A stretch of 35,317 nt of DNA, from the NCBI GenBank assembly GCA_016207465.1, contig JACQPP010000075.1, positions 1 to 35,317 on the forward strand. Reading direction: 5' to 3'. Position numbers and translations under genes: made by a program. This document shows, one piece after another, positions 9,862-27,942 of this stretch. Origin of the DNA: Methanobacteriota archaeon. Lineage in GTDB: Archaea; Halobacteriota; Syntropharchaeia; JACQPP01. The notes under the pieces were generated by a model. The model saw nothing but the letters and a program-made list of their open reading frames with translations. It searched no databases and had not been told where the DNA came from. The first letter of the stretch is position 1, and every line of letters starts with the position of its first letter.

Positions 9862-10557
9862 ATGCAAGGCCCTCCAGGGATTGCCATCACCGCCACCGAC
9901 ACCGCAGCGGGCAAAACCACCGTGGCATCGGCCCTGCTCCACCACCTGCGCTCGCGGGGGGTGGACGCTGTGCCCTTCAAGCCGGTGGAGACCGGCTGCC
10001 CCCGCCGGAGGGGACGGCCATACCCGCAAGATGCGGCGCGGCTCCGGCGGGCATCCGGGACCCCGGAGCCTCTCGGGGCCATCTGCCCTTACCCATTCCA
10101 TGCCCCCCTCGCCCCCCTGGAGGCCGCCCGCCGCGAGGGGCGCCCCATCGAGCCCCGGCGCATCCTCCGGGCCTTCCGGGCCCTCGCGGCCCGCCACGAG
10201 TGGGTGGTGGTGGAGACCGCCGGGGGGCTCCGGGTCCCCCTGACCCCCCGCTGCTCCAACCGGGAGCTCCTGCACGACCTGGGGCTCCCCGCCCTGGTGG
10301 TGGTCCCGAACTGGCTGGGAGCCATCAACCACACCCTGCTCACCCTGGATTCCCTCCAGGGGGCCCGAATCCCGGTGGCGGGGGTCATCCTGAACGACCT
10401 CCGGCCCCCGCGGGGGTTGGCGGAGAGGAGCAACCGGCGGGTCCTGGAGGGACTGGGAATCCAGGTCTGCACGTTTCCCCACATTCCCCGGGGACGGCTT
10501 GAGGCAACCTCAAGGAGGGTCCCCTGGAAATCCATTCTGCACCATTGTAAACGATAG
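9862..10557 (+). CDS. bioD: Dethiobiotin synthase
   Basis: TDTAAGKT, FKPVETG, PLAP..AA, VETAGGL.VP, LGAINHTLL. Confidence 0.92.
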   Translation: MQGPPGIAITATDTAAGKTTVASALLHHLRSRGVDAVPFKPVETGCPRRRGRPYPQDAARLRRASGTPEPLGAICPYPFHAPLAPLEAARREGRPIEPRRILRAFRALAARHEWVVVETAGGLRVPLTPRCSNRELLHDLGLPALVVVPNWLGAINHTLLTLDSLQGARIPVAGVILNDLRPPRGLAERSNRRVLEGLGIQVCTFPHIPRGRLEATSRRVPWKSILHHCKR

Positions 10558-10621
10558 CGGTGGACCCCGATTTTGCACAAACCTTATCTACCCCCCTGTC
10601 CCCCTTTACTATGGAGCCATC

Positions 10622-10957
10622 ATGGTCCTGCTCACGGTCACCGACTCGGCAGCCGCCAAAATCCAGAACGTCCTCCAGGGGCTGGGGAAGCCCCAGGGGG
10701 CCCTCCGGGTCTCCGTCGTCGGCGGGGGCTGCTCCGGGCTCTCCTACAAGATGAACGCCGCCGACGGCCCCGCCAAGGGGGACACCCTCGTCGAGGACAA
10801 GGGGGTCCGGGTGGTGCTGGACGCCAAAACCCTCCTCTACATCGCGGGCTCCCAGATTGACTACAAGGAGGGGCTGGGCCTCGACGGCCAGGGCTTCCGG
10901 GTGTCCAACCCCAACGCCAAGACCACCTGCGGCTGCGGAGAATCCTTCTCTGTATAG
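10622..10957 (+). CDS. iscA: A-type Fe-S carrier (HesB/IscA family)
   Basis: GGGCSGLSY, NPNA..TCGCGESF. Confidence 0.92.
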   Translation: MVLLTVTDSAAAKIQNVLQGLGKPQGALRVSVVGGGCSGLSYKMNAADGPAKGDTLVEDKGVRVVLDAKTLLYIAGSQIDYKEGLGLDGQGFRVSNPNAKTTCGCGESFSV

Positions 10958-10965
10958 GCCGGCCC

Positions 10966-11667
10966 ATGACTTCAGCGGCCTGTCCCAAGTGCAATACCCC
11001 GGGTGAGGCCGTCTTCTGCCCCCGGTGCGACACCCTTCTCCCCCCGCGCGAGCTGGACCACTTCACCCTCCTCGGGGCCCCCCGTCGGCCCTGGCTGGAG
11101 GAGGGGCCCCTGAAGGAGGCCTACCACCGGCTCAGCATGAGGCTCCACCCCGACCACGCGAGGGAGCGGAGGGAGGACGCGGTGGTGTGGTCGAGCCATC
11201 TGAACAAGGCCTACGCCACCCTGCGGGACCCCCGGGACCGCCTCCAATACCTGGTCTCCCTGGAGACCGGCTCGAACCCCCTGGGGCCCGGGACGGCCCC
11301 GGTGACCCCAGACATGATGAAACTCTCCCTGGAGGTCCAGAAGTTCTGCCAGGCCTTCGACCCCTGGTCCAGCCGGCCCCCCCGGGCCTCTCCCATGCTG
11401 GCGGCGGGCCGCGCCCTGGAGAAAGCGGAGCATGAGAAGAGGCTCGCCACCCTCCAGGCCGCCGTCGCCGAGCGCCGCCGGAGGGTGATGGAGGAAATCC
11501 GGGCCCTCGACGCCCGGTGGACCACTGGCGAACGGGCCCCCCTGGGCAAGAAACTCGCGGAGCAGGCCTCCTGGCTCTCCTACCTCAACAAGTTCGACTC
11601 GCTGCTGGCCGAGCGGCTCCTCGCCCTCCGCTCCGGGACCCCCATCGCCCCCGAGCCCTTCCATTAA
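10966..11667 (+). CDS. hscB: HscB-type J-domain co-chaperone with N-terminal tetracysteine module
   Basis: CPKC..FCPRC; DHF.LLG; LHPD; LNKAYATLRDP..R.QYL; follows iscA. Confidence 0.85.
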   Translation: MTSAACPKCNTPGEAVFCPRCDTLLPPRELDHFTLLGAPRRPWLEEGPLKEAYHRLSMRLHPDHARERREDAVVWSSHLNKAYATLRDPRDRLQYLVSLETGSNPLGPGTAPVTPDMMKLSLEVQKFCQAFDPWSSRPPRASPMLAAGRALEKAEHEKRLATLQAAVAERRRRVMEEIRALDARWTTGERAPLGKKLAEQASWLSYLNKFDSLLAERLLALRSGTPIAPEPFH

Positions 11668-11815
11668 ATCCCTTTTCTTTCTTTTGCCACGCCCGCCTTC
11701 GGCGGTCTAACGGAGGGCTCGCGTTGTGCTTCGCAAAACGCGAAGCCCTCCTGCAAAAGAAAGAAAAGCGATTTTATTCGGAAAAGAAAGAGAATGGTCG
11801 GATGCGTTCAGAACG
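11666..11815 (+). repeat. Structured ~150-bp repeat, copy 1
   Basis: Matches the reverse complement of 26876-27021; 16-bp outer stem cttttctttcttttgc/gcaaaagaaagaaaag enclosing two hairpins. Confidence 0.9.
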
Positions 11816-11869
11816 GAAGAGAATCCCCGATGAGTTTTTCCCCGAGGGCGAGTGAGTAAGAGAGCCATC

Positions 11870-13651
11870 ATGGCACAAAGAATCCTGGGAATTGACCTGG
11901 GGACCAGCAACTCCAGCGCCGCCGTGCTCCGGCAGGGCAAACCCATCACCATCCCCAGCCGGGAGGGGGCGAGCCCCTCGGGCAAAAATTTTCCGAGCGT
12001 CATCGCCTTCACCCCCGGGGGCCTCCTGGTGGGGCTCTCCGCCCTGCGGCAGGCCGCCGCCAACCCCCAGGGCACCGCCACCGCATTCAAGCGCAAGATG
12101 GGGAGCCCCCACAAGTATGTCTTCCAGGGCAAAGAATATGCCCCGGAGGAACTCTCCTCCATCCTCCTGCGGAAAATCCGGGAGGACGCCGAGACCCACC
12201 TGGGGGAGAAGGTGGGCAAGGCGGTCATCACGGTGCCCGCCTACTTCAACGACTCCCAGAGGCAGGCCACGAAAAAAGCGGGGGAGCTGGCGGGCCTCGA
12301 GGTGGTGCGCATCATCAACGAGCCCACCGCCGCCGCCCTCGCCTACGGCCTCGACAAGAAGGGGAGCCACACGGTCCTCGTCTTCGACCTCGGCGGGGGC
12401 ACCCTCGACGTCACCCTCCTGGAGTTCGGCGCAGGGGTCTTCCAGGTGCGGGCCACCAGCGGCGACACCCAGCTGGGGGGCACCGACATGGACCGGGCCC
12501 TCGTGGACCACCTCGCCGGGGAGTTCCAGAAGAGCGGCGGGGCGGATATCCGCGGGGACCCCCTCGCCATGGCCAAGCTCCGCGAGGCCGCCGAGCAGGC
12601 GAAAATCATCCTCTCCACCGAAACCCGGACCGGGGTCAACATCCCCTTCTTCTCCAGGGACCCCCAGGGGGCCCCCCTGCACCTCAAGGTCCCTCTCACC
12701 CGCGAAGTCATGGAGGGGGTCCTAAGGCCCATCGTGGAGCGCTGCCGGAGGCCCCTCCTCCAGGTCCTCGCCGACGCCAAGATGGACCCCGCCGGAGTGG
12801 AGAGCGTCATCCTCGTCGGCGGACCCACCCGCATGCCCCTCGTGCGCCGCTTCGTCGAGGGAGTCCTCGGCAAGAGGCCCGAGGAGGGCATTGACCCCAT
12901 GGAGGCGGTCGCCCAGGGGGCCGCCATCCAGGGGGCCGTCCTCTCCGGGGAGACTGGGCAGGTCCTCCTCCTCGACGTCACCCCTCTCTCCCTCGGCATC
13001 GAGACCCTCGGGGGCCTCATGAACACCATCATCCCCCGCAACACCACCATCCCCACCAAAGCAGGCGAGCTCTTCACCACCGCCATCAGCGGACAGAAGC
13101 ACATCCTCATCCACGTCCTCCAGGGGGAGCGGGAGATGGTGCGGGACAACTTCTCCCTCGGCCGCTTCATGTTCGAGGTCGAGCCCGCCCCCGCCGGGGC
13201 CCACCGCGTCGGAGTCCAGTTCACCATTGACGAGAACGGCATCCTCCACGTCCTCGCCATGGACACCCGCACCGGAAAGCGCGTGGACCACACCATCCAG
13301 AGCGTGGTCAACATCGAGGAGGAGAAGGTGGAGAAGATGGTCCGAGAGTCCCTCGAGCACGCCATGGAGGACATGAAGGCCCGCCAGACCGCCGAGACCC
13401 GGAACGAGCTCGACCTCATGGTCCGCGCCACCGAGACCGGCCTCGCCGACCTCGAGCCCCGCCTCAGCCCCAGCGAGGGGGAGACCATCCGCGCCAGCCT
13501 CGCCGAGGCCCGCGCCGCCCTCCCCACCGACGACTACACGCGCCTCAAGAACGCCCGCGAGCGCCTCGACAAATCCACCCAGAACCTTGCCCGCCTCATG
13601 ATGGACGAGATACAAAAGAAGACACAGGGGGCCCCCCCGGGGCCCAAATAG
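11870..13651 (+). CDS. Hsp70-family chaperone, HscA-like by context
   Basis: GIDLGTSNS, TVPAYFNDSQRQAT, INEPTAAALAYG, VGGPTRMP, LLDVTPLSLGIET; downstream of iscA-hscB. Confidence 0.9.
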   Translation: MAQRILGIDLGTSNSSAAVLRQGKPITIPSREGASPSGKNFPSVIAFTPGGLLVGLSALRQAAANPQGTATAFKRKMGSPHKYVFQGKEYAPEELSSILLRKIREDAETHLGEKVGKAVITVPAYFNDSQRQATKKAGELAGLEVVRIINEPTAAALAYGLDKKGSHTVLVFDLGGGTLDVTLLEFGAGVFQVRATSGDTQLGGTDMDRALVDHLAGEFQKSGGADIRGDPLAMAKLREAAEQAKIILSTETRTGVNIPFFSRDPQGAPLHLKVPLTREVMEGVLRPIVERCRRPLLQVLADAKMDPAGVESVILVGGPTRMPLVRRFVEGVLGKRPEEGIDPMEAVAQGAAIQGAVLSGETGQVLLLDVTPLSLGIETLGGLMNTIIPRNTTIPTKAGELFTTAISGQKHILIHVLQGEREMVRDNFSLGRFMFEVEPAPAGAHRVGVQFTIDENGILHVLAMDTRTGKRVDHTIQSVVNIEEEKVEKMVRESLEHAMEDMKARQTAETRNELDLMVRATETGLADLEPRLSPSEGETIRASLAEARAALPTDDYTRLKNARERLDKSTQNLARLMMDEIQKKTQGAPPGPK

Positions 13652-13760
13652 GCCCCCCTGCGGGTGACTAACAACCGGAACCGCTATCGGTGAACCTTCT
13701 TGCGCTCGTGACTATTTAATGCCCCGGAGCGGGCTACCCTGAGGTGGTGGGTGATTAGAC

Positions 13761-14435
13761 ATGAAGAGACTATTCCTCGTCCTGCTGGTATTCGGGGGGC
13801 TGGCCCTCGCCTCGACGGCGGCCGCCGACCACGACGGCGCCATCAAGGCGGGCCAGGTCCAAGTGAGCCTGCAACAGGTCCCCCTGGGCGGGGGAGACTG
13901 GGTCTACAACTACGACTTCCACTCCAAGGACATCCGGGCCGACAACGTGGACTGGCCCGTGACCCTCGTCTTCTGGAACAACGCCGAGGTGGACAAGGTG
14001 AAGAACGTCTGGTGCCCCTGGTACGACACCCAGTGCTGGGCCCCCGGGGTCTACGAGTATATGTACCTGAAGGACGGGAGCAGCCCCGCGTGGGACCAGG
14101 ACACCGGGAGGAAGAAGCTCCTCAAGTGGTACGACTGGGACGACACCTGGCACGTGCGCTTCTACGCCCCCTCCTCCACCGACCGGGGCTACAACCTCCA
14201 GATGGGCTACTGGGTCGTTGCCACCACCCACAAGCACATTGACGAACTGGGCGGCGACGCCACCAAGCGCACCGGATACAATGAGGAGACCGAGGGCAAG
14301 GTGGCCAGCGTCTTCAAGGGCAAGGGCTACCAGGTCCAGGAGGACTCCCTCCCCATGGGCAATGCCCAAAATGTGTGGGTGGGACACCACTACCTGGAGT
14401 CCGACGGCCGCGCCACATTGATTAGGATTCCCTGA
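13761..14435 (+). CDS. Secreted hypothetical protein
   Basis: Signal peptide MKRLFLVLLVFGGLALA..A; Trp/Tyr-rich mature domain; host-like codon usage; SD-like ggtgat upstream. Confidence 0.8.
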   Translation: MKRLFLVLLVFGGLALASTAAADHDGAIKAGQVQVSLQQVPLGGGDWVYNYDFHSKDIRADNVDWPVTLVFWNNAEVDKVKNVWCPWYDTQCWAPGVYEYMYLKDGSSPAWDQDTGRKKLLKWYDWDDTWHVRFYAPSSTDRGYNLQMGYWVVATTHKHIDELGGDATKRTGYNEETEGKVASVFKGKGYQVQEDSLPMGNAQNVWVGHHYLESDGRATLIRIP

Positions 14436-14447
14436 AGAGACTCCCGC

Positions 14448-15416
14448 GTGGAGCCATCCATCGCAGGACTTGTCCTGCTACTGCTGGTTGCCCTCGCCGG
14501 CACCGCCCAGGGGCAGGCCCCACTCCTGCCCCCCGACGAGGGCTCCCTCACCCTCCGGGACCTGGGCCACGGCGACGTCGTCCTGGGGCCCGGGGTGGAG
14601 AACCGGACCCTCGAAATCCAACTCCCCGGCAACGCCTCCCAGGGCCCCGGCCTCTGGTACCGCATCCACCTCAACCTCGAAATACGGTTCAATGAGAGCA
14701 TGGTCCGCGAGGCCCCCCGCTCGCTGGCCTACATCAGCGGGAGCCTCAACGGCTGGGCATACGCCTCCGCCAAACTCGACTTCCCCCTCCCCGGGTCCGT
14801 GCGCTGGGACTTCGTCAACGTCACCGGGACCTACCGCGAGACCGCCCCCCTCCCCCGCCTCACCCTGGACCTCTCCAACTACCCCCCCATCCCCGCCGTC
14901 CAGCCCGGAGCCGCCCGCCTGGAGTTCCGCCTGGAGACCCTCGGGGCCCCCGTGGTGGAGGAGGCCCGCATCCTGGCCACCTCCCGCATCGAGACAACCC
15001 CCATCGCCCCCCCGAGGCTCCGCATCTCCCGCGTCGAGGGGCCCCCCGCCGGCCTCCGGGCAGGGGAGGAGTTCACCCTCCGGGTCCACCTCCGCAACCT
15101 CGGAGGCCTCCCCGCCAGGAATACCCGCGTGGACCTCCGCCTCCCCGACGGACTCCGTTTCCTCTCGGGGGCCCAGGAGACCCAGCGGTTCGACTTGGTC
15201 GAGAGGGAGGCCCAGGCCGAATGGAGACTCCGCGCCATCGAGGCCGACCAGGGGGCCCTCCAGGTGCTGGTCCGCTCCGAGAGCAGCGACTCCTCCCCCA
15301 CCCTGGAGGTCCCCATCTCCATCCGCCCCCCCGATGTCCCCCTCCTCCTGGGGGTGGCCCTCGCCGCAGCCATCCTGCTCCTGGTTCTCCTCCGGCGCCT
15401 CCGCGGGCGTGGATAG
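14448..15416 (+). CDS. Exported protein with Ig-like (CARDB/DUF11-like) domain and C-terminal membrane anchor
   Basis: Signal peptide; GEEFTLRVHLRNLGG.PA.N..V.L.LPDGL; C-terminal hydrophobic helix followed by RRLRGRG. Confidence 0.75.
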   Translation: MEPSIAGLVLLLLVALAGTAQGQAPLLPPDEGSLTLRDLGHGDVVLGPGVENRTLEIQLPGNASQGPGLWYRIHLNLEIRFNESMVREAPRSLAYISGSLNGWAYASAKLDFPLPGSVRWDFVNVTGTYRETAPLPRLTLDLSNYPPIPAVQPGAARLEFRLETLGAPVVEEARILATSRIETTPIAPPRLRISRVEGPPAGLRAGEEFTLRVHLRNLGGLPARNTRVDLRLPDGLRFLSGAQETQRFDLVEREAQAEWRLRAIEADQGALQVLVRSESSDSSPTLEVPISIRPPDVPLLLGVALAAAILLLVLLRRLRGRG

Positions 15417-15541
15417 GGGGCCCCCCGGGGCCTGACAGAGACTAACACCCGGAAACCGGCATCGGGAAGCCCCCCGCTGAGAGACACTATTGATACCCCC
15501 GGCCGGAGGAGAGGAGGGCAGTGGTGGTTGGGAGGTAGATT

Positions 15542-16330
15542 ATGAAGCGACTGTTCCTCGTTCTCCTGGTGTTCGGGGGGCTGGCCCTGGCGCCCGCCCA
15601 GGCGGCCGACGGCGACAGCGACGGCCTCGACGATGGCCTGGAGCAGTCCCTCCTCTCCCGCTTCCGCCCCTACATGGTCATGTCCAAGACCGACAAGGAG
15701 CCCGGCCCCGTCTACTTCCAGAAGAACAACCCCAGCCCGGTGGTCACCGGATACGGGGGGCTCTACGGCGTCGTGAACCCCCGGCCCGGCTACGGGTGTC
15801 CCAAGGCCGCCGCGGCCCGCGGGATGTGCGCCCAGGCCCAGGTGAGCGTGGAGATGAAAATCTTCGACGTCTGGGCCAAGGACCACGGCGTACCCCCGGA
15901 GGGCTGGTCCTGGTACACCCCCTGGTGCATCCCCGGCATCACCAGCCACACCTGGGACCCCGAGGGGGGCATCCGAGTCCTCGTCAGCGCCCCCTCTTGG
16001 GACTCCCCGCCCGACCAGTGGCGGGTCTGGAAACTCGGCTACCACCGCCACGGCTTCTTCGAGGCCCGCGACTCGGCCCCCGGCATCGGGGAGAACGATG
16101 GGCAGCACGTCGGCATGTGGATATCCAAGAACAAGCACGGGGCCTACGTGAGCCAGAAGTCCGCCGAGCGCAACCCCGACTCCTGGTTCTGCGACCGCCT
16201 CAAGGACCCCGGCACGCCGAGCCGCGCCTCCATCCCCGAGAACGTGGGCGCCCTCGGAAAGCCCCTCAACGGCAACCTCTGGACCGCCTGGTACGCCGAC
16301 GACGGCAACGAGTTCAACAACCGCCTCTGA
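15542..16330 (+). CDS. Secreted protein with acidic Ca-binding-like repeat; possible NPP1/Vps62-like domain
   Basis: Same 17-aa leader as 13761; DGDSDGLDD; LLSRFRP..., SHTWDPEG, ISKNKHGAY; SD ggaggt. Confidence 0.75.
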   Translation: MKRLFLVLLVFGGLALAPAQAADGDSDGLDDGLEQSLLSRFRPYMVMSKTDKEPGPVYFQKNNPSPVVTGYGGLYGVVNPRPGYGCPKAAAARGMCAQAQVSVEMKIFDVWAKDHGVPPEGWSWYTPWCIPGITSHTWDPEGGIRVLVSAPSWDSPPDQWRVWKLGYHRHGFFEARDSAPGIGENDGQHVGMWISKNKHGAYVSQKSAERNPDSWFCDRLKDPGTPSRASIPENVGALGKPLNGNLWTAWYADDGNEFNNRL

Positions 16331-16331
16331 T

Positions 16332-18485
16332 TCACTCGAATATCCTCTGGAACACCCCGAGGGCCCCCCGGGTGGGAAACCAGGAGACCCGGTCCCCATA
16401 GTCCAGGATATAGCGGTTCTCGGAGAGCAGCCGCCCCGCCTGCATGATACGCAGGTGGATGCGCGGTGGCCGCGGCCCCCGGGTGTCCCACACAAACTTC
16501 ACATCCCCGAGGTCCGCCACGCTGTCGGGCCCCACATCGCACATGAGATGGTGCTTCAGGGGGGTCCCCTCCACCTCCACCTCGACGTTGAGCCTCCCCA
16601 GCGGGCGCCGCAGGTCGTTGATGACCTTCAGCCTCGCCACCACACCCGGGGGATTGGGCCGCAGGGGAAAGATGAGGATGGGGAGAATGGGCTGATACGA
16701 GCGCCGGACCTCCTCCCACGCCATCTTCGGGGTCCCGTCGTGCTCCACGATGGACCACGAGATGCACGGCCACGGCTCGTTGAACATCCAGAGGAGACAC
16801 CCCCCGCATGCGTATTTGCGGGACCGGTAGTGCTCGATGGCGGTCTTCAGGGCCACCGCCTGGGCCCTCTGGGCGGCCCCGGCGAACCCGGCGAGGGAAT
16901 CCACGGGGACAACGGGGCGCAGGGGGCGGATATAACGCTTCATCTTGGGCCAGGAAATCTTGTGGAACCTCCAGAGCCCCTTGTCCGGGGGCCACCCGAG
17001 CCCCATCCTCTGCAGGGTCTCCGGGCGGGGACAGGCCTGGAGGCCGAACTCGCTCGCCATCGCCCCCATGTCCCGCCGGTAGGACTCCACGGGGGCGAAG
17101 AGATGCCAGACGGTCCAGTTGTGGAAGTCCCCCCGCCGGGGACTCGATGGGTGGTAGAACCGGAGGGGGTCGGCCCCGCGGCACGCCCCCTCGATGCGCT
17201 CGAAGAGCCCCCGGTTGCGCCAATGGGAATACTCGTTTCCCCCGCACCACAGAAAGAGAGAGGGGTGGTTGCGGAGGACGCGGGCGATTCCTCCCACCTC
17301 CTGCTCGGCCAGCCGCAGATACGACTCCGAGCGGGGATAGGTCTTGCAGGCGAAGGGGAGGTCCTGCCAGACCAGAATCCCCATCTCATCGCACAAATCA
17401 TAGAACTCCCGCTTCTCCCGCAGGCCGCCCCCCCACACCCGCAGCACATTCATGTTCGCCTCCCGCGCCCGCCCCAGCAGCCTCTCGTAGTCGGGGCGCC
17501 GGAGCCTCCCGAAGAGGGAGTCCGCCGGGACCCAGTTGGCCCCCCGCAGGAACAACCGCTCCCCGTTGAACCGGAACACCCAGGGGTCCCACCCGCGCCA
17601 GGCGCTCGGGTTCGCCTCCCGCGCGGTCTCCACCAGCCCCACCCGGGTCCCCGCCGCATCCGAGCCCGGCACCTGCACCTGCAGATAATAGAGATGGGGT
17701 TCCCCCAGCTCCCACGGGTTCCACCGCCGGGGCTCCTCCACCGGGATGTCCACCACCGCCTGATGACGCCCCATCGGGATGTCCAGGTCCACCGCGCTCT
17801 CCCGGGCCACGCCACCGGCGTCGGTGAGAACCGCCCGGAGCCTCCCCCGCCAGTCCACCGCCGCGTCCAGCTCCACCTGGGCCCGCAGCACCTTCTCCCG
17901 TGGCTCCCAGCGGGCCGCCAGGTCCCGAATCAGGACAGGCCCCGACTCCACCAGCCACACCTCGTCCCACAGCCCCACCGTCACCAGACGCGGGGCGAAG
18001 TCCCACCGGTAGGACATCTGGCACTTCAGCGCATGCCTCCGCTTCTCCGGCGGAGGGTCGAGCCGCACCGCAATGGTGTTCTCCCCCTCCACCGCCGCCG
18101 TCACCTCCACCAGCCACGGTGAGAACATCCCCACATGGGTCCCGTGGGAAAACCCGTTGACCCACAGCGAGGCCCGGTAGTCCACCCCCTGGAATAGCAG
18201 ATGATAGCGGTGGTGCTCCTGGGCCCCCAGAGAGAACCGGTGGCGATACCACCACTCCCGCCGCGGGACCCAGTCGAACCCCCGCGCGTTCTCCCCCACA
18301 TACGGGTCGGGGAGACGCCCCCCCCGCACCAGGTCATCCTGCACATTCCCCGGCACCCGCCCCACCATCGAGGGCCCCTCGTATCCCACCCGGTGGGCCC
18401 CCTCCCTCTCCCCCCGGCCCGGCTCGAACTCGTGGAGACTCCACTCTCCCATCAGCGAGCGCGCCCCCGGACGGTCTAAAACCAT
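16332..18485 (-). CDS. Glycoside hydrolase family 2, beta-mannosidase-like
   Basis: FQGVDY, WDFAP, RGANWVPAD, RVWGGG, VWQD, WCGGNE (acid/base), SEFG (nucleophile). Start is 18485 or 18452. Confidence 0.92.
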   Translation of the reverse strand: MVLDRPGARSLMGEWSLHEFEPGRGEREGAHRVGYEGPSMVGRVPGNVQDDLVRGGRLPDPYVGENARGFDWVPRREWWYRHRFSLGAQEHHRYHLLFQGVDYRASLWVNGFSHGTHVGMFSPWLVEVTAAVEGENTIAVRLDPPPEKRRHALKCQMSYRWDFAPRLVTVGLWDEVWLVESGPVLIRDLAARWEPREKVLRAQVELDAAVDWRGRLRAVLTDAGGVARESAVDLDIPMGRHQAVVDIPVEEPRRWNPWELGEPHLYYLQVQVPGSDAAGTRVGLVETAREANPSAWRGWDPWVFRFNGERLFLRGANWVPADSLFGRLRRPDYERLLGRAREANMNVLRVWGGGLREKREFYDLCDEMGILVWQDLPFACKTYPRSESYLRLAEQEVGGIARVLRNHPSLFLWCGGNEYSHWRNRGLFERIEGACRGADPLRFYHPSSPRRGDFHNWTVWHLFAPVESYRRDMGAMASEFGLQACPRPETLQRMGLGWPPDKGLWRFHKISWPKMKRYIRPLRPVVPVDSLAGFAGAAQRAQAVALKTAIEHYRSRKYACGGCLLWMFNEPWPCISWSIVEHDGTPKMAWEEVRRSYQPILPILIFPLRPNPPGVVARLKVINDLRRPLGRLNVEVEVEGTPLKHHLMCDVGPDSVADLGDVKFVWDTRGPRPPRIHLRIMQAGRLLSENRYILDYGDRVSWFPTRGALGVFQRIFE

Positions 18486-18600
18486 GTTTTTTCCCTGCTC
18501 GCCTCTGGCTCGCAGGGAAAAAACATAAAGAATCGTATCGGGTCCCCGCCAGCCCCATGCGACTCTTTTTGCTTTTCCCGAGCGAAGCGAGGGAAAAGCA
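18484..18600. repeat. Two REP-like palindromes in a divergent promoter region
   Basis: atgttttttccctgc..gcagggaaaaaacat (15-bp stem) and tgcttttccc-gagcgaagcga-gggaaaagca. Confidence 0.75.
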
Positions 18601-18602
18601 CC

Positions 18603-19522
<920 letters not shown>

Positions 19523-19526
<4 letters not shown>

Positions 19527-20377
19527 ATCCGCGGATTCGTTCCGTCCTCCAGCAACCAGCCCCGGAGGCGAGGCGCACCATGAGCATCCCGCTTCGCCCA
19601 TGGCTCCGCGCCGTCGCCGGATTCGCCTACCGCGACCTCCAGGTGGTCCGCCGCAACTTCTTCGCCTTCTTCGAGATGTTCTTCTGGCCCCTCTTCGGAC
19701 TCGCCAGCGTCGGATTCCTCTCCACCTACCTCCAGGCGGGGACCCCCGAGGCCGCCACCATCCTCACCGGGGCCATCGCCCTCTCCGTGCTCCAGGTCTC
19801 CCAGATTGACACCGCCTACATCCTCCTCTTCGACGCCTGGGGCAAGAGCCTCAAGCACACCTTCCTCGCCCCCGTCCCCGACGGGACCTTCGTCGCCGGG
19901 GCCTGGCTCGTCGGCACCCTCCGCGGCCTCGTCGTCTTCACCGTCCTCCACACCATCAGCCTCACCGCCTTCGGATTCAACGTCCTCCAGGCCGGTCCCC
20001 TCCCCGTGGCCCTCTTCCTCTTCGGCATCTTCCTCACCGCCGCCCTCGTCGGAATGCTCGTCTGCGCCCTCCTCCTCACCTTCGGCCTCAAAGCAGAAGC
20101 CGCCGCCTGGTCCATCTCCATGCTCCTCCTCTTCTTCTCCGGATTCTACTACCCCGCCACCATCCTCCCCCCGCCCCTCTACCAGTTCAGCCGCCTCCTC
20201 CCCACCTCCCACCTCCTCGAATACCTCCGCGGACAATTCACCGGGGGAGCCGGCCTCGAACAGGTGGCAATCGCCTACGCGCTCACCGGAATCTACCTCG
20301 TCTTGGGGCTGCTGGGGCTGAGGTGGACCATACGGAGGGCGAAGAGGACCGGGTTGCTGTTGAGGCTGTCGGAGTAG
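19523..20377 (+). CDS. ABC-2 type exporter permease
   Basis: ATGA overlap with the ATPase plus an aggagg SD; six hydrophobic segments; SGFYYP...LP. Alternative start at 19580. Confidence 0.88.
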
Positions 20378-20473
20378 TCAGCGCTTCTCCTCTTTTTTCT
20401 TAAACCCCAACGCCAGGCTGTTGATACAGTACCTCATCCCCGTCGGCTCCAGCCCATCGTCGAACACGCGGCC
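20378..20473 (-). pseudogene. Duplicated 3' fragment of msrB (31 codons + stop)
   Basis: Translates [31 protein letters not shown], versus msr[32 protein letters not shown]. Confidence 0.88.
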
Positions 20474-20518
20474 CCGCGGCCACCATCTTTATATTCGAGA
20501 GTGATAGAGTTGGTTCCA

Positions 20519-20746
20519 ATGAAGGCTCTGATTCGCGTATCCAAGGAAGGCAAGTACTTCGTCGCCGTGGACCTTGTCACCCATGTGGCCGACCAGGGAA
20601 AAACGAAGAGAGAGGCCATCTCTCGGCTGAAGAGAGGGTTGGAGAGTCACTACCAAGTCCTCATGGAGATGGCCCGCAAAGACCGCAGGGCCTCCGTTCT
20701 CGAACTCGACATCCCCCATGCCGAAACTCCCGGTCCTGTCGGCTAA
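20519..20746 (+). CDS. hicB: HicB-family antitoxin
   Basis: EGKYFVA, VADQGKTKREAI..LK..LE.H; directly upstream of a HicA-like gene; TATA tttata at ~20488. Confidence 0.82.
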   Translation: MKALIRVSKEGKYFVAVDLVTHVADQGKTKREAISRLKRGLESHYQVLMEMARKDRRASVLELDIPHAETPGPVG

Positions 20747-20939
20747 GGCCGTCATCAAGGCCCTCCATCGCGCGGGTTTCCGGCAGGTGCGGCAGACCGG
20801 GAGCCACATCCACCTGTGGCACGATGAACGGAAACTGCTGGTCACGGTCCCGTATCACCCGGAGCTGGCAAAGGGGACCTTGCTGTCGATTTTGAGACAG
20901 GCGCGGATGGAACGAGAGGAGTTCCTGAAACTTCTGTGA
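20718..20939 (+). CDS. hicA: HicA-family toxin
   Basis: MPKLPVLS..VIKAL..GF..VRQTGSH, VTVPYH.EL.KGTL.SILRQA. Confidence 0.93.
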   Translation: MPKLPVLSAKAVIKALHRAGFRQVRQTGSHIHLWHDERKLLVTVPYHPELAKGTLLSILRQARMEREEFLKLL

Positions 20940-21014
20940 CTGTGGGAGAACCCCGACACAGGGGGACGTGAATAGAAGGGCATAGCCGACTCTTTCAGAA
21001 TTATTTCGATTCGG

Positions 21015-21425
21015 CTACGTTTTCCCCTCTCTTTTCTTGAACCCCAGCGCCAGGCTGTTGATGCAGTACCGGAGTCCGGTCGGCTCCGGTCCGTCATCAA
21101 ACACGTGTCCCAGGTGTCCCCCGCACTTCTTGCACATGACCTCCACCCTCCGCATCCCGAATGTGGAGTCGTCCTCCTCCCGGATGCAGGTCTCATCGGC
21201 GGGCTTGTAGAAGGAGGGCCATCCGGTGCCGGATTCAAATTTGGTGTCGCTGGTGAAGAGGTCGGCTCCGCACCCGGCGCAGATGTATGTGCCCGGGTCC
21301 TTGTTGGCGAGCCATTTTCCGGTCCACGGGCGCTCGGTGCCCTTCTCGCGGAGGACGTGGTACTGGGCCGGGGCGAGTTTTTTGCGCCACTCGTCGTCCT
21401 GGGGGTCTTTGCGCTTCAGGAGCAT
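21015..21425 (-). CDS. msrB: Peptide methionine-R-sulfoxide reductase
   Basis: [42 protein letters not shown]. Confidence 0.96.
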
Positions 21426-23413
21426 GGGGTGGGCATGTGGACGCCGCCCTCTGGCCTCTTTCTGCCGGTGATTCTCCTGGCGGTCTTCTTTCCCTGGTGG
21501 GCGGCGACCTCGATGAGTCCGGCGGCGATGAGCCGCAGGAGGGCGCGGCGGCGGCCGGGGCCCCGGTTGCTCTTGAGCATCTTGCGGGCAATCTGGTATT
21601 GGGTGTATCCCTTCTGGAGGTCGTCCACGTCGAGGGTGAAGTGGAGGGTGGCGTCGTTCTCGACCCCCTTGGTGGTCTTGATGTATTCGACCTCTTTCTT
21701 GTTGGTTTTGAGGATGAGGCTCATGACGGGCTCCCCCTGGTGGCGGGTGGTGACCTGGATTTTCTGTTCGCCGAGGATTTTGAGGAAGCGGCGCATCTCG
21801 ACGACGTCGTTGAGTTTGACCCGGCGGGTGTATTCCTCGGTGCGGGGGGTGGTGTAGCCGTCGAGGGCGATGAGGGCGTGGCGGATGAGGCGGTCTTTCT
21901 GGAGGCGGTCGCCCACGGTGCTGGCGAAGTGGACGCCGAAGACCTGGTTGGAGATGAAGCGGACGAGGCTCTGCTTGCGGCCGGTTTTTATCATGCGGAC
22001 GCGCTCCTGCTCGATGTAGGTGTCCATGCCCCAGAAGCGGGCCATGTTGAAGGTGGCGAGCTCCTCGATGCGCTCGGAGGTGAGGCCGTCCACCTTGAAG
22101 GTGCTGTGCATCTCGTCGAATTTCTCCCAGTCGGTCTCGAAGATGCGGCCTTGGGCGTGGAGTTCGTTCCAGAACTCGGTGCCCGGGTAGGGGGTGGCGA
22201 TGCCGTAGGCGGTCCCCTGGAGGCCGATGGACTTGGCGTAGTCGGGGAAGGTCTTGATTTGCTCCTCGGTCTGCCCGGGGAGGCCGATGACGAAGGTTCC
22301 CCCGCTGGCGCCTCCCCAGCGGTTGATGTTGCCGGCGGCGATGTGGTGGTACTCGGTGGTCTTCATCCCCTTCTTGGTGTTCTTGAGTTCCTCGGGGTTG
22401 GTGGTCTCGATGCCCATCTCGTATCCGCAGATGCCGGCGCGTATCATCTTGCGGACCAGGTCGGGGTATTTGGCAATCATGTCGGCGCGGGCGTGGCCCC
22501 CGAACTCGATGTCGTAGTCGCGCTCCAGGAGGAGGTCCACAATCTGCTCCATGATTTTGGGGTTGCCCACGAGGTTGGGGTCCACGATGAAGGTGCAGAG
22601 AGGCCGCCCCCGGTGGTAGGCCACCATCTCGTCCACCTCCCGGATGATGTTCTGGGGACTGCGGAACCTCTGTCGGGCCTCGCTCATCATGGGCTCGCAG
22701 CAGAAGGTGCATTTGGCCCAGCAGCCCCGGGAGAAGGTGATGATGTCCCGGCCCCGGTCGGGGTCCCAGTAGATGGAGTACTTGTAGCGGCGGAGGTGGC
22801 GGGCGGGGAAGGGGATGGAGTCCAGGTCCTTGATGAAGGGGCGGTCAGGGTTGTGGGATATTCTCCACTCCTTCCCGTTGCCGTTTCCGTTCCCATGGCC
22901 GTTGCCGTTCCCGTGGCCGTTGCCGTTGCCGTTTCCCGGGAGCAGGTTCAGGTCCCCCTTGGGAATTTTCCCGCTGGTCCACTCGAGGTAGGAGAGTCCG
23001 AGGATGTCCTTCTTCTCCCGGCCCTGGACAATCTCCTTGAAGGTCTCCTCCCCCTCCCGGCGGACCAGCATGTCGGCGTAGGGGAAGAGCCGCTCGAGGA
23101 AGGAGGTGGCGTGGTATCCGCCGACCACCGAGGGGACGCCGTAGTCGCGGATTTGGCCCAGCATCTCGAGGCCCCGGTAGTGCTCCCCGGCGCTGTGGAT
23201 GGCCACACCCACGATGTCGGGCTTGAAGGAGCGGAGGATGCGGTCGAAGGACTTCTTCTCCTTGGCCATGTCAATGACCGCCACCTCGTCCACGTGGGGC
23301 TCGATGTAGGAGGCGATGTATTCCAGCCCCAGGGGAATCACATCAATGGCCATCCCGAGCCCGTGGTTCGTGGTGGGGGCTGCAAGCAGTACGCGGCGGT
23401 AGGGGTCGCCCAT
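21416..23413 (-). CDS. Cobalamin-binding radical SAM enzyme (class B methylase-like) with C-terminal extension
   Basis: [32 protein letters not shown] (CxxxCxxC), GLPGQT, TPYPGT. Confidence 0.92.
22874..22936 (-). repeat. In-frame (Gly-Asn/His)n coding repeat
   Basis: 6-bp periodic ccgttg/ccgttc/ccatgg units encode [21 protein letters not shown]. Confidence 0.85.
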
Positions 23414-23534
23414 GGGTCAATTTTCCACCGGAAGGTGTGGGAAGTGGCCGTGGCTACTACTTATAGTTTCCTCACATGGCTGTCATTTCCCTTAGAAAGC
23501 GGGTTTCTTTTAGAAATCCTTTAAATCCTGGGCG

Positions 23535-24029
23535 ATGCAGTATGGGGTGATGGTTCGCGCCGCCGAGGCGGTCCCTGCCGTCGAGCCGACGGGTGGGGTA
23601 GTGATGGACGCCGAGCTCCGCCGGAAGTTCGAGGACCTCCTCCGCTCCTCCGAGGCTTTCTTCAAGGAAGTCCAGGGGCTCATCTCCAAGGGGCGCAGCC
23701 TCGACCTCCGGAAGGAGGCCCGGGTGAACAGCGAGATTGCCCGCCAGGTGACCTCCAAGTGGAGCGTGGAAATCATCTTCCTCCTCTACATGGGGGGCCC
23801 CATGGGCTTCGAGGAGCTCCGCCGCACCCTGGGGCGCATATCCTCCCGGACCCTCTCCCAGAGGCTCCAGACCCTGGAGCGCCTCGGCTACCTCGAGCGC
23901 AAGCTCTTCATGGCCCGCCCCATCCGGGTCCGCTACTCCCTCACCGAAAAGGGGCGCTCGGTGGCCACCGTGGGCTCTGGGCTGTTCCTCTACCTGCGGT
24001 ATGTGGAGGGGCACCTGGGGGGCCGGTAG
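23535..24029 (+). CDS. HxlR-family winged-HTH transcriptional regulator
   Basis: KWS..I..L..G..GFEEL, IS.RTLSQRL..LE..G, P.RV.YSLTEKG. Start may be 23604. Confidence 0.88.
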   Translation: MQYGVMVRAAEAVPAVEPTGGVVMDAELRRKFEDLLRSSEAFFKEVQGLISKGRSLDLRKEARVNSEIARQVTSKWSVEIIFLLYMGGPMGFEELRRTLGRISSRTLSQRLQTLERLGYLERKLFMARPIRVRYSLTEKGRSVATVGSGLFLYLRYVEGHLGGR

Positions 24030-25268: not shown

Positions 25269-25279
25269 GGCGCGGCAAT

Positions 25280-25925: not shown

Positions 25926-26864
25926 TTACATTCCCGCGAACTTCCGCAGGGCATCCTCGCAGGTGTATCGGGGCTCCCAGCCGAGTTCCCGCCGGGCCTT
26001 CGCGCTGCTGACCACGATGCCGTATTTGCAGTATCCGAGCCACCCCGGGTGGACCCCGGAGAGCCGGAGCCTCCAGAGGAGCCGGTTGAACCCCGCCACG
26101 AGGGGGTAGGGGACCCGGATGCTCTTCTTCTCCAGGATGGGACCGATGCGGCTCCACCGGACCGGGGGCTCGGCGGCGATGTTGAAGGCTCCCCCAGGGC
26201 TCCGCCGGAGGGCCAGGTGGAAGGCCCCGGCCACATCCTCGTCCCACGTGAACTGCACCTCCGGGTCATACCCCATGAACACCGGGCTGCGCCGGAGGGT
26301 GAGGAGACGGCCGAAGGGATTGTTGATGGTCGGCCCCACGAAGAGGCTGGGCCGCAGCAGGGTCACCTTCACCCCCGGGTTCGCCTCGCGGAACCGGACG
26401 ATATGCTCCTCCACCCGGGCCTTGGTCTCGCTGTAATAGAACCCCCGGTTGGGCCGCAGGGCACACTCCTCGGTGATGAGCCGGGGGTTGTCGGGCCAGT
26501 TCCCGTAGGCCGCGATAGAACTCGCGTGGACAATGTGGCCCACCCCTGCCCGGGCCGCGCACTCGAACACATTGACAGAGCCCCCGACATTGATGTGGTG
26601 GATGGCCCGGTCATTCTGCATCCGGATGGCCCCGGGGGCCCGCGCCACCACGAAGGCCAGATGGACCACTGCATCACACCCTCGCAGGGACCCCTCGATG
26701 GCCGGCTCCCGCACATCCCCCGCGATGAACCGCAGTTTCGGGTGCTCCCCCCGGGGCGGCTGGAGGTCAATGCCCACCACCTCCTCCACCCCCGGGTCCC
26801 CCTCCAGTAGCCGCAGCAGGATGCCACCCAGATACCCCGAGACCCCCGTGACCGCCACCCTCAT
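25926..26864 (-). CDS. NAD-dependent epimerase/dehydratase (extended SDR)
   Basis: VTGVSGYLG, HLAF, INVGGS, SSIAAYG, YSETK. Confidence 0.9.
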   Translation of the reverse strand: MRVAVTGVSGYLGGILLRLLEGDPGVEEVVGIDLQPPRGEHPKLRFIAGDVREPAIEGSLRGCDAVVHLAFVVARAPGAIRMQNDRAIHHINVGGSVNVFECAARAGVGHIVHASSIAAYGNWPDNPRLITEECALRPNRGFYYSETKARVEEHIVRFREANPGVKVTLLRPSLFVGPTINNPFGRLLTLRRSPVFMGYDPEVQFTWDEDVAGAFHLALRRSPGGAFNIAAEPPVRWSRIGPILEKKSIRVPYPLVAGFNRLLWRLRLSGVHPGWLGYCKYGIVVSSAKARRELGWEPRYTCEDALRKFAGM

Positions 26865-26875: not shown

Positions 26876-27021
26876 CGTTCTGAACGCATCAAGCCATTTT
26901 CTTTCTTTTCCGAATGAAATCGCTTTTCTTTCTTTTGCAGCAGCCGCCGACCCCTGTGGGTCGGCGGCTGCGTTAGCCCGGCCTGCAGGGCCGGGCGTGG
27001 CAAAAGAAAGAAAAGGGATTT
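26876..27021 (-). repeat. Structured ~146-bp repeat, copy 2
   Basis: Reverse complement matches 11666-11815 in flanks and linkers; inner hairpins differ in sequence but remain paired. Confidence 0.9.
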
Positions 27022-27250
27022 GAGCCTGGCGCGTAACTCCGGGGTTCATCGCTGGCCTTCGGCCTTCTTCCCGCCGGTAACCCTCGCGCCAGGCCTGTGC
27101 CGCTCCGGGGTATTTCCGCACTCATTGTCTGCCATGTGGCATCTTGTGCGAAGACCGTTCCGGGCGGCTGTGGCCCCCATCTTGCATCCGGGTTTGGTCA
27201 CAGCGGGGCTTGGCCCCGGCTCCCCCCGGTCCTCAATGGGGGCAATGAGA
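27022..27250 (-). ncRNA. Candidate structured non-coding RNA or long 5' leader, family unknown
   Basis: Dense nested stems; minus-strand TATAAATA at 27267-27274 just upstream; followed by a U-tract. Strand is not certain. Confidence 0.55.
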
Positions 27251-27282
27251 TAATACGAGGGCCCCCTATTTATACTCCGCCA

Positions 27283-27942
27283 ATGACCCGGCCTCCGGTG
27301 GAACGCCGTGAATTCGACTACGGCGGGCTCCGCCTGGTCCTCTACGACGGGGTCTACGTCCCCAGCGACGACACGATGCTGCTGGCGGAGACCCTCCGCG
27401 TCCCTCCGGGAGCCCGAGTTCTGGACATGTGCACCGGCTCCGGCCTCCTCGGACTCCTCGCCGCCCGCCGTGGGGCCCGCCGGGTGGTGCTGGCGGACGA
27501 CGACCCCCTCGCCCTCCGGTGCGCCAGTGAGAACGCCGAGAGGAACGGCCTCAAGAACGCGGAGGTGGTGCGGAGCGACCTCTTCCAGAAGGTCCAGGGC
27601 CGGTTCGACCTCATCCTCTTCAATCCCCCATACCTCCCCCAGGAGAACAGCGAGGACCTCTACCTCTACGACGAGAAGTTCGAGAAATGGCGCAACATCG
27701 GAATCCACGCCTGGGACGGAGGCCCCGACGGAAGACGGCTGATAGACCGCTTCCTCCGGGAATACCCCCCCCACCTCGCCCCCGGGGGACGCATCCACAT
27801 GATAGGCTCCAGCCTCAGCGACTACGAGAAGACACGACGCATACTCAAGGCCCAGGGGATGGAGGTCAAGATACTGGGACGGCAGAGGTTCTTCTTCGAG
27901 GAGATTGTGGCGATGGGGGCGCGGCGGGGGAGAGGACGGTAG
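27283..27942 (+). CDS. HemK2/MTQ2-type protein N5-glutamine methyltransferase
   Basis: VYVPSDDTMLL, VLDMCTGSG, SDLF, FDLILFNPPY, GGPDGR..IDRFL, FFEE. Confidence 0.9.
   Translation: MTRPPVERREFDYGGLRLVLYDGVYVPSDDTMLLAETLRVPPGARVLDMCTGSGLLGLLAARRGARRVVLADDDPLALRCASENAERNGLKNAEVVRSDLFQKVQGRFDLILFNPPYLPQENSEDLYLYDEKFEKWRNIGIHAWDGGPDGRRLIDRFLREYPPHLAPGGRIHMIGSSLSDYEKTRRILKAQGMEVKILGRQRFFFEEIVAMGARRGRGR

Follow-up and report, generated by a model that had tools for sequence, protein, structure and literature searches.

A dispersed modular repeat placed on gene ends in an uncultured groundwater archaeon: a candidate terminator-promoter cassette

BOX elements and bacterial interspersed mosaic elements (BIME), both modular mosaics of bacterial genomes, are among the closest known kinds of repeat to an element that is found twice in a 35,317-nt stretch of archaeal DNA. 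This stretch (contig JACQPP010000075.1 of assembly GCA_016207465.1, called the window below and considered at its full length) belongs to an uncultured groundwater archaeon and is contig C40 of a metagenome-assembled genome (MAG, G000) of 155 contigs, 1.50 Mb and 67.7% GC, which is 74% complete. From its sequence, we give about an even chance to the view that the element is a dispersed modular non-coding boundary element, like the repetitive extragenic palindromes (REP) and BIME or the SPRITE and Correia repeats, which would serve as a portable terminator-promoter cassette. Its core consists of a T-rich tract (Y), its A-rich complement (R1) and a second A-rich tract (R2) that mirrors the first and lies behind a short linker.

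SPRITE-type terminator-like repeats, as presented in the section of PMC10969869 devoted to them, are dispersed non-coding intergenic sequences that mimic the terminator of the host and are built of modular units inserting into one another, and the archaeal element shares these properties. In the same account these repeats are bacterial and consist of a hairpin with a U tail, whereas the element studied here has an archaeal host, carries oligo-T on both strands and adds a promoter-like module, a third, mirrored tract and a base-exact placement on stop codons and tRNA ends. What characterizes the SPRITE type, namely a terminator signal of the host at gene 3' ends, is present in sequence terms. 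Correia elements (NEMIS) of Neisseria duplicate a TA target and contain sigma-70 promoters and a site for the integration host factor (IHF); here no duplication has been found, the promoter resemblance is archaeal, with a transcription factor B recognition element (BRE) and a TATA box, and there is a third tract. A size of about 100-150 bp, long inverted-repeat arms and many gene-adjacent copies are common to both, as far as the Correia section of PMC10969869 goes, and outward promoters and processing or termination as a hairpin are reported there for the Correia element. REP/BIME and REPIN-RAYT repeats (RAYT, REP-associated tyrosine transposase) are likewise extragenic palindromes arranged in mosaics with conserved linkers, often located at 3' ends or between convergent genes, without target duplication and with long persistence. 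Unlike in REPIN-RAYT systems, no Y1/RAYT gene has been found in the MAG, none lies beside the elements of the relatives checked, and the core is made of A/T-rich tracts instead of a GC palindrome. Archaeal miniature inverted-repeat transposable elements (MITE) derive from known insertion sequence (IS) families and show matching ends and target duplications, whereas no partner IS and no duplication have been found for the present element, which is placed on gene ends. With the MITEs of Sulfolobus, Halobacterium and Haloquadratum, in the terms used in the corresponding part of PMC10969869, it shares the condition of a small non-autonomous repeat with inverted-repeat arms.

Another comparison is offered by the BoxC/PIT/TMECO repeats (Holder et al. 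2015, PMC4666352), which in the part of that work describing them contain a Y tract, a complementary R tract and a second R tract, and are multicopy, intergenic and patchily distributed among relatives, as is the archaeal element. TMECO is bacterial and G/C-rich, with blocks of 9 nt and loops of 3-6 nt (PMC4666352); here A/T-rich blocks of 10-16 nt are separated by long, variable loops with extra hairpins, and the host is an archaeon. Triplex formation in vitro is reported for TMECO in the same source, whereas for the present element a triplex is compatible with the sequence. Putative mobile promoters, in the terms of the relevant portion of PMC3575422, are highly similar upstream regions located before unrelated genes of one genome, which also applies here; they constitute a statistical similarity class without defined structure, whereas here a promoter-like module is fused to a terminator-like hairpin unit. 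The element departs from a classical MITE (no target duplication), from a REPIN (no linked RAYT) and from the intrastrand triplex-forming (ITxF) repeats in its loop length. No archaeal repeat with terminator and promoter modules, gene-end placement or a mirror tract has been found in the literature searched. With respect to an earlier note on this DNA, which had pointed to two structured copies in the window, the base-exact left end on gene ends, the promoter-like right end, an insertion at an operon junction and a class-wide short form are new.

The two copies, described in that note as sharing flanks and linkers, are both present: copy 1 occupies + strand positions 11666-11815 and copy 2 occupies - strand positions 26876-27021. 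The layout common to co-oriented copies is AAATCCC-TTTTCTTTCTTTT (Y)-GCCACG-hairpin 1-CTAACG-hairpin 2 in the left half and CTGC-AAAAGAAAGAAAA (R1)-GCGATTTnATTCGG (linker)-AAAAGAAAGARAA (R2)-N6-GATGCGTTCAGAACG (P core) in the right half. Hairpins swapped in sequence but still paired had been proposed, and both do differ between the copies and stay paired, except for one C.U mismatch in hairpin 1 of copy 1; the purine tracts keep their mirror relation, with R2 of copy 1 (AAAAGAAAGAGAA) one change off R1. The 16-mer CTTTTCTTTCTTTTGC gives five matches in the window with up to two mismatches, versus none in shuffled sequences. Folding gives a 22-bp closing stem and two hairpins for either strand of each copy, with z-scores from -5.8 to -8.4, and none of 200 shuffles was as stable as the native fold.

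The window copies are members of a family. Searched with up to one mismatch, the 13-nt tract forms 43 clusters in the genome, and in 27 of these two or three tracts lie together. The 14 long copies served to build a covariance model, which gives 42 matches in the MAG, corresponding to 30 loci and 12 reverse-strand echoes, and shorter derivatives exist too; these counts overstate independence, since the copies are kin, and as copy numbers they are lower bounds, because the MAG is incomplete and repeats break contigs. Many copies are in fact located at contig ends of the assembly. Type A, to which the window copies belong, measures about 125-160 nt, and in a subfamily A' the tracts are T6CT3CT3. 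Type B, with a short loop and the linker GGTCTCTGGACACCCC, measures about 70 nt. Reduced forms are found at C121:10231, with a loop of just 8 nt, and at C141:2968 (Y-CGG-R-P), whereas additional GC hairpins are inserted within the Y tract (C119) or interrupt R2 (C52b, C76). The right-hand module GATGYGTTCAGAACG is often present after the second A tract. Its P core, GAYGYGTTCAGAAYG, occurs in 22 copies in the genome, five of which follow a different GC hairpin without any Y/R unit, and in 20 relatives it is at chance level (0-5 matches per genome, all with one mismatch, versus 0-2 in the control). The stand-alone P cores (C38:3167, C56:3190, C76:205, C119:690 and C128:5095) are each preceded by a hairpin of the GGCGGCTCCCGGTGGACCCGCC type and by GGGAAAGAAA, which suggests that the promoter-like module also travels alone. 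Another repeated hairpin, of the type GTGAATCACCCCGGCCTGAAGGCCGGGGTGATTCAC, adjoins P cores and a tRNA-Leu 3' end (C38:~3100, C84:~900, C137:~2000) and is probably a second small repeat family.

The position of the copies is defined to the base with respect to genes. According to the gene calls, which outside the window were obtained with a crude in-house heuristic based on open reading frames (ORF) and codon scores, the stop codon of a protein-coding sequence is at -1 in 12 of the 30 loci, all of them long ORFs with high GC at third codon positions, and this codon is composed of one flanking T and the first two bases of the element. The 5' end of an opposite-strand tRNA is abutted within -3 to +3 nt at six loci and a tRNA 3' end at one; the 11 loci classed as other include copy 2 of the window, which abuts the 3' end of an H/ACA sRNA-like gene, as well as C140 and C119, in which a contig end or the start of the model probably conceals a stop codon. 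In the 12 stop-codon loci the T tract starts 5 nt after the stop codon and has the sequence T4CT3CT4, with T5-T6 in the subfamilies. Genome-wide, 17 genes have a stop codon directly followed by a ATCCCTTTT-like sequence, and 11 of the 17 end in TAA, in comparison with 249 of 1173 among all stops. The solo left ends among the 17 follow genes that we take, by sequence reading and with no Pfam run, to encode MCM, topoisomerase I and GyrB. An orientation bias relative to genes, which the earlier note had asked about, is borne out by the 30 loci, in which both placement and orientation are non-random. The genes behind P cores begin 0-54 nt downstream and encode DnaK, an epimerase, S9, a SIS protein, Memo and a phosphoesterase, and this mixture of functions makes a common regulon unlikely. 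For the same mixture among the genes behind the 22 P cores, a heat-shock operator reading of the palindrome CGTTCAGAACG was dropped.

One copy was found at an operon junction. In contig C146, a type A copy separates rpl13 and rps9, the first bases of the element being part of the rpl13 stop codon and the rps9 ATG lying 6 nt past the P core. Without the element, rpl13 and rps9 overlap or are 2 nt apart in all four relatives in which S9 was found, namely G001 (same family, 72% GC) and G003, G004 and G005 (same class, 43-47% GC); in G002, S9 was not found with the query used. The overlapping or closely spaced genes of these relatives indicate that the C146 copy was inserted. The search for empty sites suggested earlier has thus provided one filled site against empty sites in 4/4 relatives, as a comparison between species. 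The dnaK locus is not a clean second empty site, since G001 and G002 have the gene of transcription factor B (TFB) upstream of dnaK instead of the gene of the DnaJ-domain protein, and the SIS-gene site was abandoned for unclear synteny. The G001 spacer upstream of dnaK holds CGGGAAAATAGAGAAAACTGAAAGGGTTCAAGG, which is loosely like the R2 and P module of the MAG. A search for sequencing runs gave 10 groundwater DNA runs from 3 studies and none of RNA. Contigs from four runs, aligned to window positions 10000-29999, gave short pieces only, none spanning either copy and none with a clean joint across the element, and no insertion polymorphism within the population has been seen in them; a single low-depth record connects 11696 to 11783 and is indistinguishable from another repeat copy.

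The copies show no regular target-site duplication. Direct repeats in the 70-nt flanks exceed the shuffle null in only 1 of 31 copies, C121. This hairpin-less copy (C121:10194-10346) is flanked by a 35-nt direct repeat, the only long one in the 31 copies, which corresponds to the first 12 codons of the downstream gene and shows three differences, all in third codon positions. The base to the left of AAATCCC and the base to the right of GCGATTT (for example 11665 and 11775, or 27022 and 26916) were compared by eye in 21 copies, comprising type A and two metagenome-contig copies (L037 and L038), and gave T/T in 8, C/C in 7, T/A in 5 and C/G in 1, with no other combination; in 23 copies of the short form only A or T is found on the right, with a single C/A exception to the left/right rule. 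The rule might reflect a 1-2-nt duplication or an extension of the stem. Neither the Y1 transposase (PF01797, 0 matches) nor TnpB was found in the 74%-complete MAG, other transposase families not having been searched, and the match lists contain no pair of inverted left ends 0.5-5 kb apart that would indicate an autonomous partner. Among the Y1 genes listed in the relatives G027, G031 and G355, none is beside a listed element. In the class, 30 genomes combine the element with Y1, 13 contain just the element, 12 contain just Y1 and 23 lack both, these genomes being kin and not independent; the association (odds ratio about 4) was discarded as confounded by kinship, and in genus g5 elements are present in 9/16 genomes and Y1 in 2/16.

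The paired structure shows compensatory changes, in agreement with the covariation expected in the earlier note. RNAalifold predicts 34 pairs in the 14-copy alignment, 18 of them with double changes. With the stated structure, 98.7% of the cells are paired versus 87.4% in shuffles, and the 18 double-change pairs compare with 7.4 in shuffles; in both cases 0/500 shuffles reach the native value, and controls in which the structure was slid are 49-59% paired. One row, C28, in which the tract is out of register, accounts for five of the eight double changes of the closing stem. Other, independent covariation is provided by the pairs 1-117 (A-U in 11 copies, G-C in 3), 4-114 (U-A in 13, C-G in 1) and 22-96 (C-G in 10, U-A in 4), and the majority of pairs in hairpins 1 and 2 covary. 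The first base of the element, A or G, is the second base of the TAA or TGA stop and covaries with the linker GCGATT[T/C], so that through pair 1-117 a stop-codon base of the upstream gene covaries with the linker. The terminal inverted repeats are 22-nt arms, AAATC(C)CTTTTCTTTCTTTTGC and GCAAAAGAAAGAAAAG(C)GATTT, which are 99.7% paired in the 14 copies, all of which contain a C.C mismatch inside the closing stem; the third tract and the P core are positioned outside these arms. The G.U and A.C pairs (3 and 1, respectively) are uninformative about the strand of a possible RNA. In Rfam searches at gathering thresholds the window gives RNase P only, and relaxed scans, run on the two copies, one type B locus and three short-form loci, yield nothing beyond matches to miRNA-type hairpins below threshold. 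The proposal of a new MITE/REP-like family is therefore sustained by the many copies, the covariation, the non-random placement, the conserved mirror tract, the absence of an Rfam match and the filled site set against empty ones, and none of the findings named in the earlier note as contrary to it (a known MITE or Rfam match, or copies without covariation, with random orientation and without the mirror tract) has been obtained. Other identities were also considered and dropped. The copies are at housekeeping genes, tRNAs and operon junctions, not in cassette arrays, and have no RYYYAAC/GTTRRRY cores, which led to the dismissal of integron attC sites (the integrase was not searched), and C/D-box and tRNA-remnant readings of GATGCGTTCAGA and TCAAATCC were set aside because there is neither a kink-turn partner nor an acceptor arm.

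The family is older and wider than the MAG, and a short form is spread over the class. Comparison sets comprised 40 relatives, 78 other genomes of the class and 400 other genomes of the phylum. The left-end 20-mer was absent from all 40 relatives, the R-linker-R pattern of the MAG from all 400 genomes of the phylum and the element from the viral contigs scanned; a wider search for the exact 20-mer gave 26 single matches, all lacking the architecture and located in genomes that are unrelated and for the most part low in GC. On two metagenome contigs (49% and 41% GC) the left end and R-GCGATTTTATTCGG-R recur around a different interior. One of these copies (L037) follows the 3' end of a tRNA-Gly(CCC) gene between convergent genes. 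The other (L038, 41% GC) is upstream of what we take, from its N-terminal sequence and with no Pfam run, to be a cbiM-like gene, and positions 1-1650 of the same contig, a few kb from the element, presumably encode a DNA methyltransferase and a restriction-enzyme-like ORF, by sequence and with no Pfam check. A tRNA-Gly(CCC) gene adjoins the element in three organisms, 40 nt before the short form in G028, directly before the G000-type copy in L037 and directly after type B in C82.

The covariance model gives matches of about 50 nt in 13 of the 40 relatives, and the short form is TAAACCC-TTTTCTTTT-loop-AAAAAGAAAA-GCGTTT[A/T]CGG-AAAAGAAAAA, that is, TAAACCC-T4CT4-5-loop-A5GA4-GCGTTTWCGG-A4GA5. 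Its middle pattern is found in 43 of the 78 class genomes, with 1-13 matches each, roughly 170 copies in total, and none for the reversed-pattern control; by family, it is present in 42/66 genomes of f4 and 1/1 of f5, and in none of f1, f2, f3 and f6. The end of the short form covaries with the linker, TGAACCC occurring with GCGTTC and TCAACCC with GCGTTG. A hairpin insert of about 40 nt is also accepted in its loop, since an orthologous site is plain in G026 and inserted in G028. In four orthologous copies from two genera the element is conserved and the adjoining non-coding spacer has diverged. Among the 23 short-form copies fetched, the left end is within 0-10 nt of the stop of a co-oriented ORF in 9-10, and many have the stop of a convergent ORF within 60 nt of the right end. 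In G301, three short-form middle modules are arranged in tandem with a 39-nt period (contig C275:3711-3813), so that the unit can also form a small array.

Both copies of the window are sense-oriented just upstream of a gene, HSP70 (ATG at 11870) and an NAD-epimerase of the short-chain dehydrogenase/reductase (SDR) type (ATG at 26864, - strand), as had been noticed before, and the start of each coincides to the base with the 3' end of an upstream gene of the same orientation. The upstream gene of copy 1 (10966..11667, +) encodes a DnaJ-domain protein (Pfam DnaJ, E 1.1e-08; 268 open codons), whose stop is at -1, its TAA (11665-11667, +) overlapping the first two bases of the element. The left end, AAATCCC plus the Y tract T4CT3CT4 (11666..11685, +), is the proposed oligo-T terminator and the 5' arm of the closing stem, whose pairs hold in the 14 copies. 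It is followed by hairpin 1 (11691..11707, +; GCCCGCC-TTC-GGCGGTC, including the mismatch), with a sequence variable among copies, and by the 40-nt hairpin 2 (11712..11751, +), which has an apical part common to nine copies and covarying basal pairs. R1 (11755..11767, +) is A4GA3GA4, complementary to Y and therefore an oligo-T tract on the - strand. The 14-nt linker GCGATTTTATTCGG (11768..11781, +) contains GCGATTT, which pairs with AAATC(C)C, and a CGG that together with the following AAAA is BRE-like by comparison with the canonical cGAAA-TATA tRNA promoters of the genome. R2 (11782..11794, +; AAAAGAAAGAGAA), the mirror copy of R1, is a candidate for a triplex third strand and/or a TATA-like box, and the right end (11795..11815, +), formed by N6 and the P core GATGCGTTCAGAACG with the palindrome CGTTCAGAACG, is the proposed region between TATA box and transcription start. 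The Hsp70/DnaK gene (11870..13651, +; Pfam HSP70, E 5.9e-185) has its ATG 54 nt past the element.

In copy 2 (- strand), sequence and folding place AAATCCC at 27021-27015, Y at 27014-27002, hairpin 1 at 26996-26976, hairpin 2 at 26971-26940, R1 at 26936-26924, the linker at 26923-26910, R2 at 26909-26897 and the P core at 26890-26876. Upstream is a gene like an H/ACA guide sRNA with three hairpins (27016..27287, -), which matches Rfam HgcG/Pab40 over its full length, with a score of 49.2 bits (E 1.5e-12) that does not reach the gathering score of 77; the 3' end of this gene extends into the AAATCCC of copy 2, and a TATAAATA box is located about 23 nt before its 5' end. The same region has an overlapping second, weak match to HgcE. 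The downstream gene, an NAD-dependent epimerase/SDR (25926..26864, -; Pfam Epimerase, E 1.9e-26), has its ATG 11 nt past the P core. The window also contains an archaeal RNase P RNA at 30777-31169 (+), above threshold with 104.7 bits, with GGTTTAATACC 24 nt before its start.

In the proposed mechanism, the T tract, which lies directly on a stop codon or a tRNA or small-RNA 3' end, would terminate the upstream transcript, because archaeal RNA polymerase terminates at oligo-T. Efficient termination by this enzyme has been described at 5-6 T, in the portion of PMC2253867 concerned. The two A tracts are T tracts on the other strand and would stop opposing transcription, making the element a bidirectional terminator, and this fits its frequent position between convergent genes in the relatives. 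The BRE-like CGG/CGAAAA beside an A/T tract would start transcription, rightward in type A, with the start expected a few nucleotides after GAACG, and leftward, toward the AAATCCC end, in the short forms and the tRNA-linked type B. The cassette would therefore close one transcription unit and open another, leaving the gene behind it active even at an operon junction, which would explain its tolerance inside rpl13/rps9. From the core, the family of the MAG may have multiplied and grown by longer tracts, GC hairpin units in the loop and sometimes in the tracts, and addition of the right-hand module, spreading by a mechanism that leaves no target-site duplication, with hairpins kept paired either by selection or by intrastrand template copying.

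The promoter part of this proposal relies on resemblance to the canonical promoters of the genome (tRNA, H/ACA, RNase P), in which cGAAA(A) precedes TTTATxx, TATAAATA or TTTAATA and the RNA begins about 23 nt further on; in tRNA genes cGAAA and TTTATxx are at about -37 to -31. In type B, the T tract occupies the TATA-box position of the other tRNA genes. In the four orthologous short-form copies, the reverse-complemented linker reads CCGAAAACGC in two and CCGAGAACGC and CCGTAAACGC in the others, followed by the T tract, and the ATG of the divergent gene comes directly after GGGTTTA, which leaves the T tract at about -30 to -21. Read rightward, TTCGGAAAA-GAAAGAAAA of type A resembles CGAAAAGG-TATTAAA, and the stand-alone P modules, GGGAAA-GAAAWT, are close to the canonical GGGAAA-CTTTATGA. 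With canonical spacing, the type A start would be 2-4 nt after GAACG, which fits the start codons found 0-12 nt further in several genes.

Several observations weigh against a terminator-promoter cassette. The type A tract T4CT3CT4 has no run of five T, and AAAGAAAGAAAA, made of purines only, has none of the TA steps found in the canonical boxes of the genome (TATAAATA, GGTTTAATACC), so that it may be a poor site for the TATA-binding protein. Four type B copies have a canonical BRE/TATA just upstream of the element, which would then be the leader of a pre-tRNA and not a promoter. The contexts are heterogeneous, with the L038 copy and several copies of the relatives located between divergent genes, and function alone does not account for a placement to the exact base on stop codons. 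The PIT/BoxC elements of E. coli, with a similar Y-R-R design, have neither promoter nor terminator activity according to the pertinent part of PMC4666352.

The compatibility with a triplex pointed out in the earlier note holds, and the mirror relation extends to all four sequence subfamilies. The mirror match of R1 and R2 is better than a direct repeat in 37 of 47 copies, equal in nine and worse in one, over 14-16 mirrored positions in the MAG and 10-12 in the relatives. The mirror pairs are A5GA4G/GGA4GA5 in the short form, A5GA3GA4/A4GA3GA5 in type B and A3GA3GA6/A6GA3GA3 in A', where Y is T6CT3CT3. Proteins are not known to read mirror symmetry, and the conserved mirror is for this reason a real hint of a third-strand interaction. 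In the definitions given by PMC4666352, class II triplexes have the order Y, R, R on one strand and class IV the order Y, Y, R, and class IV, unlike the purine motif, can also form in RNA. The sense strand of the element has the class II layout and the other strand that of class IV, with blocks of the kind defined. The first loop measures 1-4 nt in the short forms and 8-75 nt in the MAG, and the second 7-8 or 11-14 nt (10 or 14-16 nt counting the flanking G/GG), so that the element falls outside the loops of 1-6 nt in the ITxF definition set out in that part of PMC4666352.

A selfish repeat without host function is a rather unlikely alternative. It would be mobile without target-site duplication or spread by gene conversion, like MITE or REPIN, the copies at boundaries being those that survived purging elsewhere; the in-frame TAA at its tip would limit damage to upstream ORFs, and intrastrand template switching of the DNA would leave the hairpins perfect. 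The insertion at the rpl13/rps9 junction agrees with such a repeat, as do the patchy distribution (present in the MAG, absent from both of the other genomes of its own family, 42/66 in f4), the near-identical G000-type copies on two metagenome contigs of 41% and 49% GC, the extra hairpin units nested in loops and tracts, the equally good folding of both strands and the many copies at contig ends, as expected of repeats that break assemblies. It is opposed by the lack of target-site duplications (1/31 flanks above the shuffle null) and by the fact that neither a Y1 transposase nor TnpB was found in the incomplete MAG, the listed Y1 genes of G027, G031 and G355 not being beside elements; moreover, orthologous sites in different genera keep the core while the spacer next to it has changed, which suggests constraint, and conserved mirror symmetry has no role in known transposition. 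A structured RNA (3' untranslated region, leader or small RNA), with a three-way junction selected for 3'-end stability, processing or sequestration of the U tract, appears clearly less probable. The compensatory covariation in all four helices is strong, the folding z-scores are very negative and the elements lie inside transcription units right after stop codons, but both strands fold equally well, G.U pairs are not in excess over A.C (3 vs 1), hairpins are replaced wholesale and extra ones appear elsewhere, unlike in a conserved RNA fold, and no Rfam family matches. Most of the structure would never be transcribed if the T tract terminates, and self-sequestration of the U tract, as proposed before, is unneeded to explain the anatomy of the element.

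Selection on the Y-R-R mirror design for a DNA structure, with H-DNA or an intrastrand triplex, formed under supercoiling or in single strands, acting as a polymerase barrier or as a hotspot of recombination or instability, like BoxC/PIT/TMECO, is in our opinion very unlikely. The mirror beats the direct match in 37/47 copies and in every subfamily, in A' the linker is bordered by an A6 run on either side, with T6 in the T tract, and the class II/IV layout is present, scrambled genomes having given no stems above 11 in the search reported in that section of PMC4666352. Nevertheless, the core tracts are self-mirroring, which reduces the mirror excess to 1-4 nt per copy with few independent events among kin, A-rich purine-motif triplexes are weak, and the mirrored G's on the linker side are otherwise explicable, one pairing with CCC and the other belonging to the BRE-like CGG. 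The loops, of 4-75 and 10-16 nt, are also far above the 1-6 nt of the search in PMC4666352, as given in its definition. Similarly little probability is assigned to a triple helix selected for the control of gene boundaries. In its boldest form, a counterpart of MALAT1-mascRNA, the tRNA-sense RNA of type B would fold into 10-14 U.A-U / C+.G-C triples, a helix whose end lies 7-10 nt ahead of the tRNA, and cleavage by RNase P would leave the upstream RNA with a triplex-protected 3' end; in a milder form, a DNA triplex at the element would block polymerases and insulate neighbouring transcription units. The order T tract, linker, T tract, loop, A tract, GGGATTT and tRNA, relevant to a possible triple helix of the type of the element for nuclear expression (ENE), is found on the tRNA-sense strand of six tRNA genes, and in four of the six the canonical BRE/TATA just upstream suggests that the first T tract may not be transcribed.

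For bacteria, dispersed repeats with regulatory signals are amply documented (REP/BIME, Correia, SPRITE and BoxC); there is hardly any description of them for archaea, in which the grammar of terminators and promoters is still being worked out. For annotation, the repeats of this element break MAG assemblies and can pass for structured RNAs. The dozens of natural copies of its modules, with and without hairpin inserts, and the short form present in many genera constitute a ready-made test set, which bears on how the archaeal polymerase stops and starts, on the tolerance of operons to insertions and on the function of long mirror-repeat triplex motifs.

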